From an uncultured Chloroflexia bacterium (lineage in GTDB: Bacteria > Chloroflexota > Limnocylindria > Limnocylindrales > CSP1-4), in contig CAVQJC010000012.1 in assembly GCA_963712745.1 (NCBI GenBank), forward strand, positions 1-64,000: 64,000 nucleotides of DNA, given 5' to 3'. Below are positions 34,954 to 44,457 of the stretch, piece after piece (within the stretch, counting starts at the first letter, position 1; each line of letters starts with the position of its first letter). Under the pieces are notes generated by a model that was not told the origin of the DNA, did no database searches, and saw only the letters and a program-made list of their open reading frames with translations. Position numbers and translations under genes: made by a program.

Positions 34954-36033
34954 CTAGCGAACGCGCGCGGCCGCGGCGCCGCCGGGAGCACCGGTCACGA
35001 TCGGAGTCTCCCGGCCGAGCAGTGCGGCCGGCGGCAGCTCCACGCTCGGCGCGATGCCCGACTCGAGCCGGTCCGATTCCTCGATGAACAGCGGCACGAG
35101 GCCGGGGTCGAACTGCTTGCCACTATGCTTGCGCAGCTCCTCGAAGGCTTCTTCGACCGAGCGCGGTGCGCGGTAGGGTCGGCCACGGACGATGGCGTCG
35201 AAGGCATCGGCAAGCGCCACGATGCGCGCCCCCAGCGGGATCTCCTCGGCCTTGAGGCCGTCGGGATAGCCCGTACCGTCCCAGCGCTCGTGGTGATGGC
35301 GGATGATGGGCGTGAAGTCGCGCGACATGCGCAGCGGGTCGCAGATGCGCTCACCGATCTCGGGGTGCTCGCGCATGATGCGGAACTCGTCCTCGGTCAG
35401 CGGCCCGGGCTTGTGCAGGACGTGCTCACTGATGCCGATCTTCCCGATGTCGTGCAGCAGCGCGCCGTAGGCCACACCCTCGAGCGCGCCGTCACGAAGC
35501 CCGACATAGGCGGCCAGACGAGCCGATCGATAGGCCAGGTAACGGCAGTGGTCCTTGAGTCCGATGTCCTTGGCCTCGACGGCGTTGGCCAGGGCTACCA
35601 CGATGTCGTGGGCCTGCTCCATGCGGCGGATGACCTCACGCGTGCGGAACGAGCTGCGCAGCCGGGCCAGCAGCTCCACCTGCTGGAACGGCTTGGTCAC
35701 GAAGTCGTCCGCGCCGGCGTCGAGCGCGGCCACCATGTCGCTGGTGGAGGTGTGGGCGGTGAGGACGATGATGGGCAGCGTCACCGTGCGCGCGTCGGCA
35801 CGCAGGCGCCGGCAGATCTCGAGCCCGTCCATGCGCGGCAACGTCAGGTCGAGGATGAGCATGTCCGGCTGGTGTTCGGCGACCGCGCGCAGTCCAAGCT
35901 CGCCATCAGCGATGGCGATGACGCTGTATCCGGCGTCCTCGAGGATGCGACTCAGGACGCGCCGAACGGCGGCATCATCCTCGATGACTGCCACGCGGGG
36001 ACGTGTCGAACCCCGGTGGGCAGTGTCCTGCAA
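34954..36033 (-). CDS. Response regulator with HD-GYP phosphodiesterase domain (RpfG-like)
   Basis: REC: VIEDD, PDMLILD, DFVTKPF; HD-GYP: LLHDIGK, HHERWDGTGYP, ADAFDA, RPY. TTG start after GGAGG. Confidence 0.93.
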   Translation of the reverse strand: MQDTAHRGSTRPRVAVIEDDAAVRRVLSRILEDAGYSVIAIADGELGLRAVAEHQPDMLILDLTLPRMDGLEICRRLRADARTVTLPIIVLTAHTSTSDMVAALDAGADDFVTKPFQQVELLARLRSSFRTREVIRRMEQAHDIVVALANAVEAKDIGLKDHCRYLAYRSARLAAYVGLRDGALEGVAYGALLHDIGKIGISEHVLHKPGPLTEDEFRIMREHPEIGERICDPLRMSRDFTPIIRHHHERWDGTGYPDGLKAEEIPLGARIVALADAFDAIVRGRPYRAPRSVEEAFEELRKHSGKQFDPGLVPLFIEESDRLESGIAPSVELPPAALLGRETPIVTGAPGGAAAARVR

Positions 36034-36202
36034 CGCTCTCCCTCCACTGCGCCACGACGACTTGACGCGGGTCAGCCGTGAGTATACCGAGCGTTGACAG
36101 TTGTCACCACGCGCGCGTGTTCTTCTCGACGACGGATGCCCGGTCGCGAGGTGTACATCCGGGCCAGCGAGCCGAAACTGAGGGGAGTGATAGCGTGTGC
36201 GC

Positions 36203-37039
36203 ATGGCCAGCAACCCTCGGCCGGCTCGGCGCCGCCGCTCGATGGGCCGCATCGCCCGCACAGGCGCCTCGTTCGCTCTGGCGGGGACCTTCGCGCTCGC
36301 CCTGCCCGTCCTCGGCACCATCACGGCGACCGGGCGGGGGATCGCGCCGGTCGCGGCGGCCGAAGACGTCCGCCTCGACAAGGGCTCCATACCGGTCCGG
36401 ATCCAGGTGCCCAGTGCCGGCATCGACCTGCCGGTGGTCTCGAGCCAGCGGACGGTACCGGGCAACGCCGGCAGCTATCCGCTCTGTGACGTGGCCCAGT
36501 ACTGGACCATCTACGACCTGCCGGGCAAGCCGGGGACAGCCTGGATCTACGCTCACGCGCAGCCGGGCATGTTCCTGCCGCTGTTCACCATCTCCGAAGC
36601 GACGAACGGCCAGGGGCTGATCGGGGACAAGGTCAAGCTGCAGCTGAAGGACGGCCGTCTGCTGACGTACCGCATCACCGAGGTCCGCGAGCGTGCCACC
36701 CGGCGATCCATCGCCCAGCGCGACAAGCCCAACGAGCATCGCCTGGTCCTCCAGACCAGCACGGGCCCGCCCGGCACCGTGCCCAAGCTCCAGGTCGCGG
36801 CCAAGCTCGTGGACGCCACGCGTACCGACGCGAAGCCGCCCAGGGCCCAGCCACGGGCCTGCTGGCAGCCGAAGCCCAGGCCGACGCGCAAGGGCGCCAA
36901 GCCCAGGCCGACACCAGAGCCGGTCGAGGTGGTCGAGCCCGGCGAACCGTTCGATGCCATGGCGCTTGTGCTCGGGAGCGGGGCCGTACTGATCGGGGCC
37001 ACCATCGTGTCGGTCTACATCATCCGTCGCGGTCCCTGA
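36203..37039 (+). CDS. Sortase-like protein with LQTS in place of LxTC
   Basis: RIQVPSAGIDLPVV, PGKPGTAWIYAH, GDKVKL...YRITEV, LVLQTS; N-terminal signal and a C-terminal TM segment. Confidence 0.75.
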   Translation: MASNPRPARRRRSMGRIARTGASFALAGTFALALPVLGTITATGRGIAPVAAAEDVRLDKGSIPVRIQVPSAGIDLPVVSSQRTVPGNAGSYPLCDVAQYWTIYDLPGKPGTAWIYAHAQPGMFLPLFTISEATNGQGLIGDKVKLQLKDGRLLTYRITEVRERATRRSIAQRDKPNEHRLVLQTSTGPPGTVPKLQVAAKLVDATRTDAKPPRAQPRACWQPKPRPTRKGAKPRPTPEPVEVVEPGEPFDAMALVLGSGAVLIGATIVSVYIIRRGP

Positions 37040-37127
37040 CCCCTCCCCCTCTCCCGCGGGGGAGGTCCACAGGACTCGCCTGCCCTGATCACGGGCGGAC
37101 GCGAATGCGATGACGCGACACACGAAG

Positions 37128-37162
37128 ACGACGGCCGGGTCCTTGAGGGACCCGGCCGTCGT
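37128..37162. terminator. 15-bp perfect stem between convergent genes
   Basis: ACGACGGCCGGGTCC-TTGAG-GGACCCGGCCGTCGT. Confidence 0.75.
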
Positions 37163-37188
37163 ACCGGTTGCGAAAGGCTGGTGTTCGT

Positions 37189-40100
37189 CTAGCGGCGGTT
37201 GCGCACCTCTGCGAGACGCTGGTGGCGGATGATCCAGCCGGCGCTGACGATGGTCAGAGCGCTGAGCATCAGCCAGATGGCCCAGTTGAAGGGACCGCCG
37301 AAGGGCTCACCGTCGTCCGTGGCAGCCGAGAGGCTGTCGGTCACGAGCAGCATGTCCGTCGGAGGCTGGCTCTTGCCACCACCCGTGCTCTTGCCACCGC
37401 CGCCGATGAACTTGACCGTGGCATCGTCCTTGGCCTCAGCGAAGCGAGGGGTGATGCCCGGAGGCGGTACCAGCGGGTTGACGTCGGTCACCTTGATGTG
37501 GGCCGTGTCCTTGTGCGGCGTGTCGAGGTCACCCACGAGCTCCACCGTGAACTGACACTTGTGGTCCACGTTCGGTTCAACGACCGTGCCGTAGAGGCCT
37601 TCACAAGTATTGTCCTTGATGTTGGGGTTGTTGCTGTCGAGCAGGTTGTCGTCCTCGGGATCATCCCACAGCTCGTACAGGTAGATGGGCGTGCTAGTGA
37701 CCGTGTGGCTGAAGGTGAGGACGAACGTCACCTCGGTGCCGGACTCGACCGAGTCAACGACCTCCCCGTCGACGAACGGGACCTTCTTCAGCGTGATGTC
37801 GATCTCTTGCGTCGAGCGCTTCGGGACCTCGACGGCCTTTTCGTCCTTGTCGGTCGCGGTGCGCTTCTTGGCGTCCGTCACGATCACCTCGGCGGTGTTC
37901 GGATAGATGCCCGTGTCCCAATGGTCAACGGAGTAGTTGCAGGTGGCCGTGTCGCCATCGTCGCCGTAGGGCTCAAGGATGGTGCCCATCAGCCCCGGGT
38001 CGCAGGCGGCGAAGCCGTCCGCGATCCCACTCTGGGTATCGGTCAGTGTCGTGATCTCCACGGGCACGACAGACAGGTTCTGGATGGTCAGGGTGTAGTT
38101 GAACGTGCCGCCCGGCCACGGGAGACCGTTCTTGTCGACGTCCTTGATGAGGTCGACGGCGATGCGGTCGACGGTGACCTCATCGCAGATCAGATCGGGA
38201 GCATCCCCGACCTGGTCTGAGTCGACGCAAGCCTGGTTGTAGACCTGGCCGTTCTCGACGTCGGTTGGAGTGGTGGTGTAGGTAGCGGTGCATTCGATGG
38301 CCTGACCGCTGAGCAGCTTGTCCACCGGCAGCGTCACCTCGTCGGACCCGACCGTGCATGTCCACGGAAGCCCGTCGAGCAGCGAGTCGGTGATATCGAC
38401 GTCGGTGAGCGCAGCCACACCGATGTTGGTGGCGGTGATGGTGTACTCGATCTTCTCGCCAGCCTCGGCATACTGATCGGTCGAGGCTTCCTTGACGATC
38501 TTGAGCTTGGCGACCGGGGTCTCGACGTCGTCACAGACCTTGGCGGTCTCGACGCTGTCAGCACAGGCCGCGTTCAGGACCTTGCCTGGCGGGACATCCA
38601 TGTCGCCGGCCACGATGGTGTAGCTGGCGGTACAGATGATCTGGTCAGCGATGGCCAGGGTCGGCACGGGGAACGACAGCGGAGCGCCCGCGCCGTTCAG
38701 CTTGCAGACCCAGTTGTCCAGGTCACCCACGGCCGTCAGGTCGTCGGTGACATCGACCTTCGTGAGGGCGGTCTTGCCCGCGTTGGTGGCCGTGACCGTG
38801 TAGTTGATCACGTCGCCAACTGCGCTGTAGTACTCACGGTCGGCCTTCTTGACGATGGTCAGCTGTGAGCGCAGGACGGTCTCGTCGTCGCAGACCTCGT
38901 CCCGGACCTCGTCGGCGTCGGCACAAGCCTGGTTGTAGACCTGGCCGGCCTCGAGATCGGCTTCGGTGATGGAATGGGTGGCCGTGCAGATGACCGAGTC
39001 ACCCACGCCCAGCTCGACGGGCAGGTCGACCTTGTCGCCAGGTGCATCGTCGAGCACACAGCTGAAGTCGTCCAGTCCACCGGGGAACTTGTCGGTCACG
39101 TCCACATCGGTCAGCTTGGTCTGCCCGACGTTGGTGGCCGTGATGGTGTACGTGATGAGGTCGTCGACCTCGTCGTAGAACTCCGGATCAGCCGTCTTCG
39201 TGATCTTCAGGGCTGCGTGGTAGTTCGTGACCTCACAGGTGAGCTCGTCGCCCACCGCAAGCGTCACGGTGCCGTCGGCCGCACAGGCGCCCGTCCAGTC
39301 GCCAGCCACGTAGTCGGGGATGTCCATGACCTCGGAGGCGGTGTACTCGACACCGGCCTTGAGCTCGTTGGCCACGGCCCACTCGACCTCATCCTGGTCG
39401 ATGTAGGGGATGAAGTCCTCGAGCTCGCCGGGGCCGCCGACGATGGCCTTGGTGAGGGTCAGCTTGGGTGCGATGTCCTGGTTGGTGATGATGCACTCGA
39501 CGTCGTCACCCGGCTTGAGGGTGACGGTGCCCTTGAGGGCATCGGGGCAGGCGTCGTCGCCGGTGAGGGAGACGAACTCGTAGCCCTTGAGGCCGACCTC
39601 GTCGAGGACCAGGGCCTTGTTGGCCGTGTACGTGTTGGCCACGCCACTGGTGACGGGCGTGCCGTCGACGCTGATGCCGAACTGGTCAGGGGTGGCCTTG
39701 CCACCGTGGTTGTTGTCGACCTTCTTGGTGAGCGTCAGCTTCGGACCGATGTCCTGGTTGACGATGGTGCAGTCGACGTCGTCACCGGGCTGCAGGGTGA
39801 CCGTGCCCTTGAGGGCGTCCGGGCAGACCTGGTCGCCGGTGATCTCGACGAACTCGTAACCCTTGAGGCCGACCTCGTCGATGACGAGGGCCTTGTTGGC
39901 CACGTAGGTGTTCGTGGCGCCACTGGTCACAGGGGTGCCGTCGACGCTGATGCCGAACTGGTCGGGCTTGGCGTCGCCACCGTTGTTGTTGTTGACCTTC
40001 TTGGTGAGGGTCAGCTTGGGTGCGATGTCCTGGTTGGTGATGATGCACTCGACGTCGTCACCCGGCTTGAGGGTGACGGTGCCCTTGAGGGCATCGGGGC

Positions 40101-43100
40101 AGGCGTCGTCGCCGGTGAGGGAGACGAACTCGTAGCCCTTGAGGCCGACCTCGTCGAGGACGAGGGCCTTGTTGGCCGTGTACGTGTTGGCCACGCCACT
40201 GGTGACGGGCGTGCCGTCGACGCTGATGCCGAACTGGTCGGGCTTGGCGTCGCCACCGTGGTTGTTGTCGACCTTCTTGGTGAGCGTCAGCTTCGGACCG
40301 ATGTCCTGGTTGACGATGGTGCAGTCGACGTCGTCACCGGGCTGCAGGGTGACCGTGCCCTTGAGGGCGTCCGGGCAGACCTGGTCGCCGGTGATCTCGA
40401 CGAACTCGTAACCCTTGAGGCCGACCTCGTCGATGACGAGGGCCTTGTTGGCCACGTAGGTGTTCGTGGCGCCACTGGTCACAGGGGTGCCGTCGACGCT
40501 GATGCCGAACTGGTCGGGCTTGGCGTCGCCACCGTTGTTGTTGTTGACCTTCTTGGTGAGGGTCAGCTTGGGTGCGATGTCCTGGTTGGTGATGATGCAC
40601 TCGACGTCGTCACCCGGCTTGAGGGTGACGGTGCCCTTGAGGGCATCGGGGCAGGCGTCGTCGCCGGTGAGGGAGACGAACTCGTAGCCCTTGAGGCCGA
40701 CCTCGTCGAGGACGAGGGCCTTGTTGGCCGTGTACGTGTTGGCCACGCCACTGGTGACGGGCGTGCCGTCGACGCTGATGCCGAACTGGTCGGGCTTGGC
40801 GTCGCCACCGTGGTTGTTGTCGACCTTCTTGGTGAGCGTCAGCTTCGGACCGATGTCCTGGTTGACGATGGTGCAGTCGACGTCGTCACCGGGCTGCAGG
40901 GTGACCGTGCCCTTGAGGGCGTCCGGGCAGACCTGGTCGCCGGTGATCTCGACGAACTCGTAACCCTTGAGGCCGACCTCGTCGATGACGAGGGCCTTGT
41001 TGGCCACGTAGGTGTTCGTGGCGCCACTGGTCACAGGGGTGCCGTCGACGCTGATGCCGAACTGGTCGGGCTTGGCGTCGCCACCGTTGTTGTTGTTGAC
41101 CTTCTTGGTGAGGGTCAGCTTGGGTGCGATGTCCTGGTTGGTGATGATGCACTCGACGTCGTCACCCGGCTTGAGGGTGACGGTGCCCTTGAGGGCATCG
41201 GGGCAGGCGTCGTCGCCGGTGAGGGAGACGAACTCGTAGCCCTTGAGGCCGACCTCGTCGAGGACGAGGGCCTTGTTGGCCGTGTACGTGTTGGCCACGC
41301 CACTGGTGACGGGCGTGCCGTCGACGCTGATGCCGAACTGGTCGGGCTTGGCGTCGCCACCGTGGTTGTTGTCGACCTTCTTGGTGAGCGTCAGCTTCGG
41401 ACCGATGTCCTGGTTGACGATGGTGCAGTCGACGTCGTCACCGGGCTGCAGGGTGACCGTGCCCTTGAGGGCGTCCGGGCAGACCTGGTCGCCGGTGATC
41501 TCGACGAACTCGTAACCCTTGAGGCCGACCTCGTCGATGACGAGGGCCTTGTTGGCCACGTAGGTGTTCGTGGCGCCACTGGTCACAGGGGTGCCGTCGA
41601 CGCTGATGCCGAACTGGTCGGGCTTGGCGTCGCCACCGTTGTTGTTGTTGACCTTCTTGGTGAGGGTCAGCTTGGGTGCGATGTCCTGGTTGGTGATGAT
41701 GCACTCGACGTCGTCACCCGGCTTGAGGGTGACGGTGCCCTTGAGGGCATCGGGGCAGGCGTCGTCGCCGGTGAGGGAGACGAACTCGTAGCCCTTGAGG
41801 CCGACCTCGTCGAGGACGAGGGCCTTGTTGGCCGTGTACGTGTTGGCCACGCCACTGGTGACGGGCGTGCCGTCGACGCTGATGCCGAACTGGTCAGGGG
41901 TGGCCTTGCCACCGTGGTTGTTGTCGACCTTCTTGGTGAGCGTCAGCTTGCCTTCGGTGGGCTCGTTGCGGAAGGTGCAGGTGATGACGTCGTTGTTGCC
42001 GAGCGTCAGCTTGACGCCGTTGTCTGCCGCGTTGTTGTCGACGGTGACATTCGCGCCCTGGTTGGTCACGCACTTGGCGTTCTTATCGCCGGCCCAGGTG
42101 ACGAGCGACCAGCCGTTGCCGAGCCGGGCGTCCGTCTCCTTGACGGTGGCTGTGACGTCGCCCGTAAGGGCGAAGTTGAAGTTGACGGCGCCGCCGCCGT
42201 TGGTCTTGCCGTTGGCCGGTTCGGAGGTGATCGCCACGGCCGGGTTAGAGGAGGCCTCGTACTGCCAGCCTGATTCGGGTGTCCAACCACCCTTGCCGTC
42301 AGGGACTTCCTTGACGACGGTGATCGAACCGCCACAGAGCTCCAGAGCGATCTTCTTCAGTGCCTGGCCAAGCTCGTCCCAGTCGCCGACTGCGTAGGCG
42401 TCGCCGGGGCCGGACACGAGCACAAGGTTCGTCGGATTGCTGACGGCCTGGCCCACACCGATCGCGAGGATCGTGGGCTTGCTGGGCAACGCCTTGAGCG
42501 AGTTGGCGGACAGGATGCCGGCCTCGACGTCAGCGAGGTGGACGGTGCCACCCTCGTAGTTCTGGCTGTCACCGTAGGTCGTCGGATTGCCGTCAGAGAC
42601 CTTGACGACGACCTGGGCATCCGGGGCCAGCGCCGCGACCGTGCGGAAGGCGCTGTCCCAGTTGGTGCCGCCGTCGGGATTGTTGACCTTGTCGATGTCC
42701 TGGTGGACGGCGGTAGTGCTGCTCAGCACGCTGTCCCAGGAGCCATCTGACTCCTCGCGGCCAAGCCAACTGAAGCTGAAGACACGGAACTCCGTGGGCG
42801 TGCCCTTGAACACGTCGACGAAGTCCTTGGCGGCACTCCGCAGGGTTCCGTTCTCTTCGCTCGTGGAACCGGACTCGTCCAGCAGGAGCGCGATCTTCAG
42901 GCCGCACGCCTTCGGGACGGTGTTGTTGTCCTTGCGGTTGACGAAGACCGGCGTCGTCGTGGTCTGGCCCGACTGGACGACGGCATCGTAGTGATACGTT
43001 TGGTTGCTCTGGTTCGTGTTCGAGCCGCTGCCATAGGCAATGGCCGGAATGATGTTCCAGCCGCTTGGCGCGGTCTTCTCCGTGACCGTGTAGGTATCGG

Positions 43101-44457
43101 GATCGAGGTTCACAGAGACCTGGCCACCGACCGTCTGGCCGGTCGTGGTGGTCGAACCGTTCTTGACCTCGAAGGTAGCGCCATCGAGCGGCTTGGCGAT
43201 GTTGGTCCGGCTGGTGCCGTTCCTGTAACCACCCTTCCTGACTACGAGTTGACCCTGCTCGACGGCGGCCGGGGCGACTCGCGTGGCCTTCGTCGCCTTG
43301 GGCGCTGCGGGTGCTTCGACGATGGGCTCTTCGGTCGCCTCAGGCTGGGCGAGGGCATCTGCGAGCGGGTCGACGACGCACTCGCCGGTGATCAGATCGA
43401 TGATGCAGTCGTTGGCCGGCTCTTCGGCGACCGGCTTCCCTTCGGCCGGGGCCTCGGTGGGCTCCTCGACCACGGTGTCTTCGGCCGGGGCCTCGGTGGG
43501 CTCCTCGACCACGGTGTCTTCGGCCGGGGCCTCGGTGGGCTCCTCGACCACGATGTCTTCGGCCGGGGCCTCGGTGGGCTCCTCGACCACGATGTCTTCG
43601 GCCGGGGCCTCGGTGGGCTCCTCGACCACGATGTCTTCGGCCGGGGCCTCGGTGGGCTCCTCGACCACGATGTCTTCGGCCGGGGCCTCGGTGGGCTCCT
43701 CGACCACGATGTCTTCGGCCGGGGCCTCGGTGGGCTCCTCGACCTTGGGCAGCTCGACCTTGGGCAGCTCGACCTGGGGCAGGTCGCTGACGACCAGCTC
43801 GTCAACGGCCGGAGCGACCGCAGTCTCGGCTGCGCGGATCTTGATCTTGATCTTGGCCTTCATATCGCCGCGCTTGGCGATGAGGCGGGTGCGGCCGGGC
43901 TCGTCGCCGGCGAAGACGCGGATCTTCTTGGCCTTGTCCTTGGAGGCCCGCGCGACGGACTCGTCACGCATGATCCAGTCGACATTCACGACCTTGCAGA
44001 GGTCATCGGCGCTGGGCTTGCTGTCGGCGCCAAAGGGAGAGGCATCCCCGGCGGGACATTCGTAGGCACGGACCTTCTTCTTGACCCCGCCCACCTCAAG
44101 CTTGATGACCTTGGGGTGGATGACGAGCACCATCTCGGGCTCGACCGGCTCAGCCTTGGGCTCGACCTTGAGCGGCTCGAGGGCCGGTGCGGCCTTCTTG
44201 GGCTCAGCCGTCCTGGGCGCGGGCTCGGACTTCTCGGCCTTCTTGACCGTGGGTCCGGGCTCCTCTGGTTCAGCTGGTTGCTCCGGCGCCGGATCGGACT
44301 GCTGCTCGGCAGCGGCCGGGTCGTGGGATGCAAGTGCATCCTCTTGGGCCAGTACCGACAACGGCGCAAAGACCAGCGTTGTCAGCAATAGGATCGCCTG
44401 CAGCACAGCCAGCAAGGCCATGCGCGAACGACCCCCACGGTTCGTGGACGAATACAT
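37189..44457 (-). CDS. Giant surface adhesin-like protein (2422 aa): signal peptide, acidic repeats, vWA domain, SpaA/prealbumin-like repeats, DUF11/DUF7507-like repeats, C-terminal anchor
   Basis: MIDAS motif LLLDESGS, GGTNW, SDGNP; KLTLTKKV...CxITN repeats; ITYTITATNVG...LTDVDVTD repeats; QPPTD + TM + basic tail. Confidence 0.92.
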   Translation of the reverse strand: MYSSTNRGGRSRMALLAVLQAILLLTTLVFAPLSVLAQEDALASHDPAAAEQQSDPAPEQPAEPEEPGPTVKKAEKSEPAPRTAEPKKAAPALEPLKVEPKAEPVEPEMVLVIHPKVIKLEVGGVKKKVRAYECPAGDASPFGADSKPSADDLCKVVNVDWIMRDESVARASKDKAKKIRVFAGDEPGRTRLIAKRGDMKAKIKIKIRAAETAVAPAVDELVVSDLPQVELPKVELPKVEEPTEAPAEDIVVEEPTEAPAEDIVVEEPTEAPAEDIVVEEPTEAPAEDIVVEEPTEAPAEDIVVEEPTEAPAEDTVVEEPTEAPAEDTVVEEPTEAPAEGKPVAEEPANDCIIDLITGECVVDPLADALAQPEATEEPIVEAPAAPKATKATRVAPAAVEQGQLVVRKGGYRNGTSRTNIAKPLDGATFEVKNGSTTTTGQTVGGQVSVNLDPDTYTVTEKTAPSGWNIIPAIAYGSGSNTNQSNQTYHYDAVVQSGQTTTTPVFVNRKDNNTVPKACGLKIALLLDESGSTSEENGTLRSAAKDFVDVFKGTPTEFRVFSFSWLGREESDGSWDSVLSSTTAVHQDIDKVNNPDGGTNWDSAFRTVAALAPDAQVVVKVSDGNPTTYGDSQNYEGGTVHLADVEAGILSANSLKALPSKPTILAIGVGQAVSNPTNLVLVSGPGDAYAVGDWDELGQALKKIALELCGGSITVVKEVPDGKGGWTPESGWQYEASSNPAVAITSEPANGKTNGGGAVNFNFALTGDVTATVKETDARLGNGWSLVTWAGDKNAKCVTNQGANVTVDNNAADNGVKLTLGNNDVITCTFRNEPTEGKLTLTKKVDNNHGGKATPDQFGISVDGTPVTSGVANTYTANKALVLDEVGLKGYEFVSLTGDDACPDALKGTVTLKPGDDVECIITNQDIAPKLTLTKKVNNNNGGDAKPDQFGISVDGTPVTSGATNTYVANKALVIDEVGLKGYEFVEITGDQVCPDALKGTVTLQPGDDVDCTIVNQDIGPKLTLTKKVDNNHGGDAKPDQFGISVDGTPVTSGVANTYTANKALVLDEVGLKGYEFVSLTGDDACPDALKGTVTLKPGDDVECIITNQDIAPKLTLTKKVNNNNGGDAKPDQFGISVDGTPVTSGATNTYVANKALVIDEVGLKGYEFVEITGDQVCPDALKGTVTLQPGDDVDCTIVNQDIGPKLTLTKKVDNNHGGDAKPDQFGISVDGTPVTSGVANTYTANKALVLDEVGLKGYEFVSLTGDDACPDALKGTVTLKPGDDVECIITNQDIAPKLTLTKKVNNNNGGDAKPDQFGISVDGTPVTSGATNTYVANKALVIDEVGLKGYEFVEITGDQVCPDALKGTVTLQPGDDVDCTIVNQDIGPKLTLTKKVDNNHGGDAKPDQFGISVDGTPVTSGVANTYTANKALVLDEVGLKGYEFVSLTGDDACPDALKGTVTLKPGDDVECIITNQDIAPKLTLTKKVNNNNGGDAKPDQFGISVDGTPVTSGATNTYVANKALVIDEVGLKGYEFVEITGDQVCPDALKGTVTLQPGDDVDCTIVNQDIGPKLTLTKKVDNNHGGKATPDQFGISVDGTPVTSGVANTYTANKALVLDEVGLKGYEFVSLTGDDACPDALKGTVTLKPGDDVECIITNQDIAPKLTLTKAIVGGPGELEDFIPYIDQDEVEWAVANELKAGVEYTASEVMDIPDYVAGDWTGACAADGTVTLAVGDELTCEVTNYHAALKITKTADPEFYDEVDDLITYTITATNVGQTKLTDVDVTDKFPGGLDDFSCVLDDAPGDKVDLPVELGVGDSVICTATHSITEADLEAGQVYNQACADADEVRDEVCDDETVLRSQLTIVKKADREYYSAVGDVINYTVTATNAGKTALTKVDVTDDLTAVGDLDNWVCKLNGAGAPLSFPVPTLAIADQIICTASYTIVAGDMDVPPGKVLNAACADSVETAKVCDDVETPVAKLKIVKEASTDQYAEAGEKIEYTITATNIGVAALTDVDITDSLLDGLPWTCTVGSDEVTLPVDKLLSGQAIECTATYTTTPTDVENGQVYNQACVDSDQVGDAPDLICDEVTVDRIAVDLIKDVDKNGLPWPGGTFNYTLTIQNLSVVPVEITTLTDTQSGIADGFAACDPGLMGTILEPYGDDGDTATCNYSVDHWDTGIYPNTAEVIVTDAKKRTATDKDEKAVEVPKRSTQEIDITLKKVPFVDGEVVDSVESGTEVTFVLTFSHTVTSTPIYLYELWDDPEDDNLLDSNNPNIKDNTCEGLYGTVVEPNVDHKCQFTVELVGDLDTPHKDTAHIKVTDVNPLVPPPGITPRFAEAKDDATVKFIGGGGKSTGGGKSQPPTDMLLVTDSLSAATDDGEPFGGPFNWAIWLMLSALTIVSAGWIIRHQRLAEVRNRR
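39467..41950. repeat. Nine 276-bp coding repeats alternating A/B (552-bp period)
   Basis: Near-identical DNA; the shadow ORFs in the track recur every 552 bp. Confidence 0.95.
43441..43743. repeat. Eight 39-bp coding repeats (VEEPTEAPAED[I/T]V)
   Basis: Seen directly in DNA and protein. Confidence 0.95.

Follow-up and report, generated by a model that had tools for sequence, protein, structure and literature searches.

A sortase-like enzyme with serine at the nucleophile position, and the conserved C-terminal tail of the giant adhesin encoded beside it, in an uncultured member of the Limnocylindria

Can a sortase fold operate with serine in place of its catalytic cysteine, and is the giant adhesin encoded beside such an enzyme its substrate? 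The question is raised by a locus on contig CAVQJC010000012.1 (assembly GCA_963712745.1) of an uncultured bacterium of the Limnocylindria, phylum Chloroflexota. The window, meaning the whole stretch of 64,000 nucleotides (nt) that was analysed (positions 1 to 64,000 of the contig), carries the gene of a sortase-like enzyme with the motif LVLQTS and, convergent with it, the gene of a secreted adhesin of 2422 amino acids (aa). A first-pass annotation, made from the sequence alone, had proposed a serine-nucleophile or non-catalytic class of sortases paired with a PPTD sorting signal. The enzyme has a sortase fold in which replacements of two catalytic residues are conserved, and the adhesin has a conserved tail that is genomically coupled to one subclade of the enzyme family, here called Type A.

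The enzyme belongs to the sortase superfamily by its match to the Pfam Sortase model PF04203 (37.8 bits, cut-off 26.6). An AlphaFold2 model, built with 75 relatives (mean predicted local distance difference test score, pLDDT, 83.8), consists of a helix at residues 16-39, a beta-barrel and a further helix at residues 254-278, the last being the extra C-terminal transmembrane (TM) segment that had been read from the sequence. A Foldseek search of the model against the PDB gave 126 matches at E<=0.001, the top ones all sortases; the best was SrtA of Lactobacillus rhamnosus (7f87_A, E 1.1e-08), and Listeria SrtA, Thermobifida SrtE and also SrtC were among the others. By its N-terminal helix the enzyme is membrane-tethered and extracytoplasmic, and relatives of a second subclade, Type C, have lipobox-like N-termini. 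When the family profile was aligned to SrtA of Streptococcus agalactiae (3rcc), the family segment LvLQTSEGp..pkLqvaA stood against the chain LTLVTCTDPEAT-ERIIVHA, which places Ser188 at the catalytic Cys position and Lys197 at the catalytic Arg position. The sortase-like motifs of the first-pass annotation (the His in IYAH, LVLQTS and the Lys near the Arg position) agree with PF04203 and with this alignment, and they lie at the coordinates given there, as does the QPPTD of the adhesin. Of the catalytic residues that define MEROPS family C60, the enzyme thus has the His, with Ser188 for the Cys and Lys197 for the Arg of strand 8. Its sole NCBIfam match was the class F sortase model NF033748, at 21.2 bits against a cut-off of 166. 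Since two of the three C60 residues are replaced and the class F score lies below the cut-off, the enzyme was not filed in classes A-F.

Conservation of the active-site-like residues was counted in two sets of relatives. Of 657 relatives returned at E<=0.001 by a word-indexed protein search, the best 120 served as close homologues for the residue counts. HMMER, run exhaustively against 1.84 billion cluster representatives, found 308 proteins (50%-identity clusters, Chloroflexota) at E<=0.001; the best 150 of the 308 together with the query formed the representative alignment, in which sites were counted over aligned rows. Ser occupies the Ser188 site in 120/120 close homologues and in 128 of the 132 aligned representatives; the exceptions are one each of Cys (protein P0253), Pro, Gly and Glu, the Glu in a badly aligned row. 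His120 is invariant among the close homologues (120/120) and present in 139 of 142 aligned representatives. The Arg position is basic in all 120 close homologues (Lys 110, Arg 10) and holds Lys in 119, Arg in 4, Val in 5 and other residues in 3 of the 131 aligned representative rows. The residues around the site (Q-T-S-E/T-G and HA[QR]xGMF) are conserved to the same degree as in active sortases.

The Ser codon was traced over 91 distinct DNA loci, where AGY occurs in 66 and TCN in 25; as both codon boxes are in use, selection has kept Ser through a change of codon box. In the window the codon is AGC, one base from the Cys codon TGC, and the first-pass annotation had raised this as a caveat. 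Logan contigs from three public runs of three studies span 36758-36760 with zero differing bases, all reading AGC and not TGC; one of the runs, a DNA run, may be the source of the window itself. One Logan contig from an RNA-library run spans part of the enzyme gene, which records presence in the library and not transcription, and where a single run leaves part of the gene uncovered by contigs, this does not count as absence.

Two further residues, Cys97 and Cys222, are both present in 120/120 close homologues, and Cys97 in 143/143 aligned representatives. They probably form a disulfide by which a short C-terminal extension is fastened to the barrel, judging from sequence and model: the domain is exported, neither cysteine occurs without the other, DSSP assigns isolated bridges to residues 97 and 220 of the AlphaFold2 model, and the proteins of Type C and of a third group, Type B, end after Cys222. 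The motif LQTCET, with Cys in place of the Ser, was seen in a single family member, protein P0253, which has both extra cysteines too. P0253 branches in the unresolved base of the family tree and could be an intermediate or a reversal.

The family profile matched 87 of 401 sampled genomes of the phylum at E<=1e-5, a tally in which canonical sortases are counted. The matches cover 23/23 genomes of the GTDB family of the window and 4/4, 16/16 and 2/2 genomes of the three nearest families. The family-profile and tail-profile tallies each contain one genome flagged as unpublished (G272, G038), and no claim depends on either. NCBI records call the family members "sortase" or "hypothetical protein". 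A quick maximum-likelihood tree with SH-aLRT support only, rooted on five Cys-type rows, was calculated from 69 of 82 rows given (13 rows with <10% filled columns after trimming were dropped). In this tree the two-cysteine LQTS family is one clade (99), within it Type A is a clade (100), and Type C is the sister of Type A (89).

The closest Cys-type relatives, which root the tree, are the LTLQTC...PRF sortases of the phylum. They share with the family the motifs LGIDLPxV, Y.YGHAREG.F and L.LQT[C/S]; they keep Cys and Arg and lack both extra cysteines and the C-terminal extension. The genome of the window holds one family member and one such canonical sortase, on contig C5 (LTLQTC, PRFVV; G000 C5:198045-198407, reverse strand), which has a long N-terminal extension. 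No LPXTG-like substrate for the canonical enzyme was seen in a crude scan of the C-termini of this genome (84.55% complete). Inspection of 25 weaker matches of the family profile (L034-L038, L156-L175) revealed Cys-type LTLQTC..PRF enzymes and two further Ser clades (L156-L158, L160, L161, L164; L038, L159). One of these, LTLQTSQG..GE[FLW][IV]VVA, has Glu at the Arg position, which might give a Ser-His-Glu triad, to judge from the motif. The other, LT[LV]QTS..PRF, retains Arg, and neither has the C-terminal Cys extension. One Cys-type relative carries DPKV at the Arg position, so the change from Arg to Lys is not peculiar to Ser types.

The adhesin of the window ends in ...GGGKSQPPTDMLLVTD, a 23-residue spacer, WAIWLMLSALTIVSAGWII and RHQRLAEVRNRR, in agreement with the order of QPPTD, spacer, TM helix and basic tail that the first-pass annotation gave for the convergent 2422-aa protein. 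In general form the Type A tail is xxPTDML..TD, a spacer, a TM helix and RRQRL. An 11-row alignment of such tails, searched against a database of 5.8 billion proteins, gave 36 proteins, or 37 with P0269 added (P0270 was already included). Of the 37, 35 have the core xxPTD[MT]L, in the forms QPPTDML (18), LKPTDML (9), QKPTDML (3), KPPTDML (3), LPPTDML (1) and QPSTDTL (1). A search with a single 75-aa tail gave 2 proteins only, because that search is limited by shared exact words. The tail is conserved across Type A passengers of ~490 to 2422 aa, and within it the motif is conserved while the linker ahead of it is not. Nine tail-bearing database proteins lie on contigs identical in size to those of listed Ser-sortase clusters (e.g. 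149433, 164410, 533352, 81510).

Within the genome of the window, the regular expression PPT[DEGNS] near C-termini returned 149 stop-to-stop frames, nearly all noise, with the adhesin of the window as the sole real tail; among the 143 frames of this genome with a TM segment and a basic C-terminus no second PTD tail was found. Across the 401 sampled genomes of the phylum a strong match of the tail profile occurred in one, the window's own (5.5e-33), and in 0/400 others. Of 8 weak matches in the phylum (E 2e-4 to 1e-2), 5 were inspected and none is a tail: two are long multi-pass membrane proteins (L060, L061) and three are unrelated frames (L062, L063, L067).

Type A enzymes have about 57-73 residues, including the membrane helix, beyond the second Cys. 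Their genes stand in the order dnaE, GH25 muramidase-like gene, acyltransferase, response regulator with an HD-GYP-type domain, enzyme, and convergent adhesin with DUF11/SpaA repeats. Of the 14 Type A loci with at least 650 nt of downstream flank, 11 have a convergent neighbour with the tail, namely the window, four genome loci (L004, L005, L007, L008) and six metagenome loci (L076, L080, L083, L084, L085, L087); four further Type A loci have <160 nt of flank and are uninformative on the tail. In five Type A genomes all tail-profile matches lie within ~10 kb of the enzyme gene: one each in G401 and G402, two each in G404 and G405, and zero in G403, in which the enzyme lies on a 5-kb contig.

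Type C comprises short enzymes from metagenome loci (L090, L095, L098/L100, L099, L147) whose lipobox-like starts (e.g. LAGC, GGCA) indicate that they are probably lipoproteins and not anchored by a helix. In five distinct loci a gene for a secreted, Cys-containing SpaA-like protein of ~250 aa precedes the enzyme gene on the same strand at a distance of ~75 nt; the SpaA match of this protein is weak and under the Pfam cut-off. This partner ends in SP[AP]TDT[VI]PA, ~10 residues, a TM helix and LRRR. The tails of Types A and C share P-x-T-D or P-T-D, with a hydrophobic helix and then arginines behind it. Type B makes up most of the family, and its proteins end 0-6 residues past the second Cys, as do those of Type C. 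Of 20 Type B loci from the GTDB family of the window (L039-L058), 15 follow nuoL/M/N directly or one gene apart; L043, which is without an enzyme gene, and L054, which has other neighbours, are exceptions. A gene for a thioredoxin-fold AhpC/TSA-Redoxin protein adjoins the Type B enzyme in 6 of the 20 loci. Pairing with the tail is limited to Type A and, with a variant signal, to Type C, and does not extend to the whole LQTS family. The pairing of a Ser sortase class with a PPTD signal, as first proposed, holds for Type A and in variant form for Type C, and fails for most members, which are of Type B; all close homologues have Ser, and PPTD-type tails do co-occur with the enzyme in Types A and C.

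These data suggest, with an even chance of being right on the sequence evidence, that a dedicated serine-nucleophile sortase-like enzyme processes the tail of the adjacent adhesin. The enzyme would be a membrane-tethered, extracytoplasmic sortase fold in which His-Cys-Arg has turned into His120-Ser188-Lys197, dedicated to the giant adhesin encoded tail-to-tail beside its gene. The adhesin would be exported via its signal peptide and stay membrane-bound through the C-terminal helix and the basic residues behind it, whereupon the enzyme would recognise PPTDML..TD about 23 residues outside the membrane. Ser188, activated by His120, would attack a peptide bond, likeliest the one after Thr by analogy with LPXT|G, with Lys197 in the role of the sortase Arg. 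The acyl-ester intermediate would be resolved by an amine of the envelope, which would anchor the adhesin, or by water, which would release it. Four elements of this picture are inferences: that the enzyme is catalytic, which bond it cuts, which acceptor it uses, and that the two cysteines form a disulfide. An active, dedicated Ser enzyme is favoured because His, Ser and the basic residue are near-invariant, because Cys is among the replacements at the Ser site, and because Types A and C are coupled to different passengers with like tails. The fuller proposal, a working His-Ser-Lys serine sortase lineage of Chloroflexota, stabilised by the added disulfide, that reads P-T-D-M-L to anchor or release giant adhesins, is offered tentatively, at slightly less than an even chance.

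A number of points weigh against this proposal. Three Type A loci (L078, L081, L082) have no tail in the 1.3-1.8 kb before the contig end and contain nucleotidyltransferase/AbiE-like inserts; L008 has a like insert, with the tail ~1.5 kb away. In the 23 sampled genomes of the family to which the window belongs the tail profile had no match, and no tail-bearing or substrate-like neighbour of Type B was seen in the 20 loci; as most of the family is of Type B and without a tail neighbour, the general role of the family may differ. All Type A loci share the wider synteny (dnaE, GH25, acyltransferase and response regulator with HD-GYP-type domain, >10 kb), so that the adjacency is partly inherited and not independently selected, and as Types A and C are sister clades they do not represent two independent origins of the pairing. 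The tail is found almost always on one kind of passenger (DUF11/DUF7507/SpaA). The spacer of ~23 residues between motif and helix is much longer than in classical sorting signals, and we know of no biochemical evidence for a Ser-type sortase anywhere. Exchange of a Cys nucleophile for Ser usually cripples Cys enzymes; for tobacco etch virus (TEV) protease a ~10^4-fold loss is reported (PMC4576821).

The same cost, put at orders of magnitude of activity (PMC4576821), would fit an unlikely but serious alternative, namely that the enzyme is a conserved pseudo-sortase that has kept fold and groove and lost catalysis. Such a protein would act on the adhesin as its regulator, its chaperone or a retention factor by binding the PTDML tail or another target, and cutting, if any, would be done by another enzyme, e.g. 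the canonical LQTC sortase of the genome. Cys nucleophile and Arg are indeed both exchanged, a canonical His-Cys-Arg sortase is present in the same genome on contig C5, and Type B members have no obvious substrate gene adjoining. A dead site, however, is not expected to keep near-invariant His, Ser and basic residue over 308 clusters at 50% identity, nor flanking residues (Q-T-S-E/T-G, HA[QR]xGMF) conserved as in active sortases; moreover, Cys is found among the four rows that depart from Ser, and Ser itself is written in codons of both boxes.

Less probable again, and rather improbable in itself, is that the link to the adhesin is mere inherited gene order, with the PTDML tail a plain membrane anchor and the Ser-sortase family in some other role at the envelope. 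The synteny of Type A loci over >10 kb and the near confinement of the tail to DUF11/SpaA passengers fit this, and the commonest position of the family, behind nuoLMN (15/20) with a TlpA-like redoxin adjacent in 6/20, might suggest another role. Against it, the related Type C enzyme is paired with another passenger, in another gene arrangement, that has a like P-x-T-D, TM helix and RRR end, the tail motif is conserved where the linker upstream of it is not, and tails were found only in genomes possessing the Type A enzyme. That the nucleophile has been relocated, Cys97 (before strand 3) or Cys222 (in the C-terminal extension) doing the chemistry and Ser188 being a remnant or helper, is very improbable. 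Both cysteines are invariant among the close homologues (best 120 of 657) and absent from the canonical LQTC relatives inspected, and sequence register on the SrtA topology would put Cys97 at the active-site end of the barrel, close to the side of the His; set against this, the cysteines are always paired in an exported domain, the DSSP bridges at 97/220 fit a structural disulfide, and P0253 has the Cys pair plus a Cys at the Ser site. An error of sequencing or assembly, AGC for TGC, requires a change of one base only and is nevertheless refuted by Ser in 120/120 and 128/132 homologues, by TCN codons in 25 of 91 loci and by the agreement of the contigs of three runs, which leaves it a negligible probability. 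The LQTS conservation and TCN codons to which the first-pass annotation had looked for a decision on this point thus speak for a genuine Ser.

The features of the locus are listed in Table 1. The database copy of the enzyme, P0001, begins at ATG 36203. A scan for consensus promoters and terminators around the enzyme gene found none. The hairpin between the convergent genes is a possible two-way terminator, as read from its sequence, and the divergently oriented response regulator hints at control of the adhesin locus by a second messenger.

Table 1. Coordinates of the enzyme gene, the adhesin gene and associated features in the window
Feature	Position	Strand	Details
Ser-type sortase-like gene	36203..37039	+	ATG 36203, alternative GTG 36197, stop 37037-37039; 280/278 aa
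N-terminal membrane helix, residues 16-39 (280-aa numbering)	36242..36313	+	AlphaFold2/DSSP, hydrophobic sequence
Sortase domain PF04203, residues 69-193	36401..36775	+	Pfam
Cys97 (TGT), first invariant cysteine, in YPLCDVA	36485..36487	+	Homologue alignments
His120 (CAC) in IYAHAQPGMF, at the sortase catalytic His position	36554..36556	+	Homologue alignments
Q-T-S motif of LVLQTS	36752..36760	+	Ser188 = AGC 36758-36760, at the catalytic Cys position
Lys197 (AAG) in PKLQV, at the catalytic Arg position	36785..36787	+	Alignment to SrtA
Cys222 (TGC), second invariant cysteine, in PRAC	36860..36862	+	Homologue alignments
Extra C-terminal membrane helix, residues 254-278, then RRGP; defines Type A	36956..37030	+	AlphaFold2
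Hairpin, perfect 13 bp, GC-rich, 5-nt loop, no T tract	37129..37159		Between the convergent enzyme and adhesin genes
Secreted adhesin, 2422 aa, presumed substrate	37189..44457	-	Signal peptide, VWA-like region, 10 SpaA_2 repeats, DUF7507/DUF11 repeats
Basic cytoplasmic end of the adhesin, RHQRLAEVRNRR	37192..37227	-	Read from sequence
Hydrophobic membrane segment of the tail (W..I), WAIWLMLSALTIVSAGWII	37228..37284	-	Read from sequence
Conserved tail motif QPPTDMLLVTD	37336..37368	-	QPPTD = 37354-37368
Response regulator with HD-GYP-type HD domain, divergent neighbour	34957..36084	-	Same place in 4/5 Type A genome loci (not L004)

The adhesin gene contains two tandem arrays. At 39448-41950 there are 9.1 copies of a 276-nt unit (86% matches), with the protein repeats alternating in near-identical pairs, and at 43440-43744 a 39-nt unit encoding EEPTEAPAEDIVV is present in 7.8 copies (99% matches); the arrays may vary in length or be collapsed in the assembly. 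Upstream of the enzyme's own C-terminal helix (36900-36960, forward strand) lies a semi-conserved x-D-x-x-[TS]-L, with Asp in 81/120 of the close homologues (best 120 of the 657 relatives). It faintly resembles the T-D-M-L of the adhesin, and on this likeness the anchor of the enzyme may itself be processed. In other loci, gene pairs of the nucleotidyltransferase/AbiE-like kind lie between enzyme and adhesin (L008:10812-11138, L081, L082, L078), and a protein with an Ice_binding domain (PF11999) is encoded directly after a TM-anchored LQTS enzyme in L102:694-1815 and L116:2630-3808; the L102 protein has a C-terminal helix and no P-T-D motif, and the C-terminus of the L116 protein runs off the contig.

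With canonical sortases (PF04203/MEROPS C60, classes A-F; 3rcc, SrtE of Thermobifida fusca, 9iok) the enzyme has in common the fold, the N-terminal tether and the position of the His, as well as T-[nucleophile] closing strand 7, a basic residue opening strand 8, and an adjoining SpaA/DUF11 surface protein whose C-terminus consists of a short motif, a hydrophobic helix and basic residues. It differs from them in Ser for Cys, mostly Lys for Arg, the two extra invariant cysteines and the C-terminal helix of Type A. The conserved motif, TM helix and basic tail of the adhesin may make up a sorting signal; unlike in LPXTG, the Pro of xxPTDML..TD adjoins the Thr, Asp follows, and the motif lies ~23 residues from the helix. 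The two further Ser clades (LTLQTSQG..GE and LT[LV]QTS..PRF) also have Ser at the nucleophile site, but lack the Cys pair and have Glu or Arg at the basic position. Class B sortases form dedicated pairs of enzyme and substrate with a signal of the NPQTN type, and they are Cys enzymes. It is such pairs that the enzyme and its adhesin would resemble most in operation. As in those pairs, one enzyme gene lies beside one or two presumed substrates with a non-LPXTG signal that is found nowhere else in the genome; class B differs in the Cys nucleophile and in motif and spacing.

At the level of listings and abstracts, no description was found of natural Ser-type sortases, of the PTDML tail or of sortases of the Limnocylindria. 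Reviews define sortases as cysteine transpeptidases of six classes (PMC13178298, PMC8225981). If the proposal of a working serine enzyme is true, the family would be a seventh, non-cysteine class of sortases with an ester and not a thioester as intermediate, and a conserved natural Ser variant with its cognate signal would demonstrate that a nucleophile other than Cys can work in this fold. The change of Arg to Lys and the presumed added disulfide would offer a ready comparison for the retuning of an active site, and the family could yield oxidation-resistant ligation tools with an orthogonal recognition motif. Should the enzyme be a pseudoenzyme instead, a large unannotated pseudo-sortase family would be at hand. 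As an active enzyme dedicated to its neighbour, it would explain the display of giant adhesins by little-known uncultured Chloroflexota.

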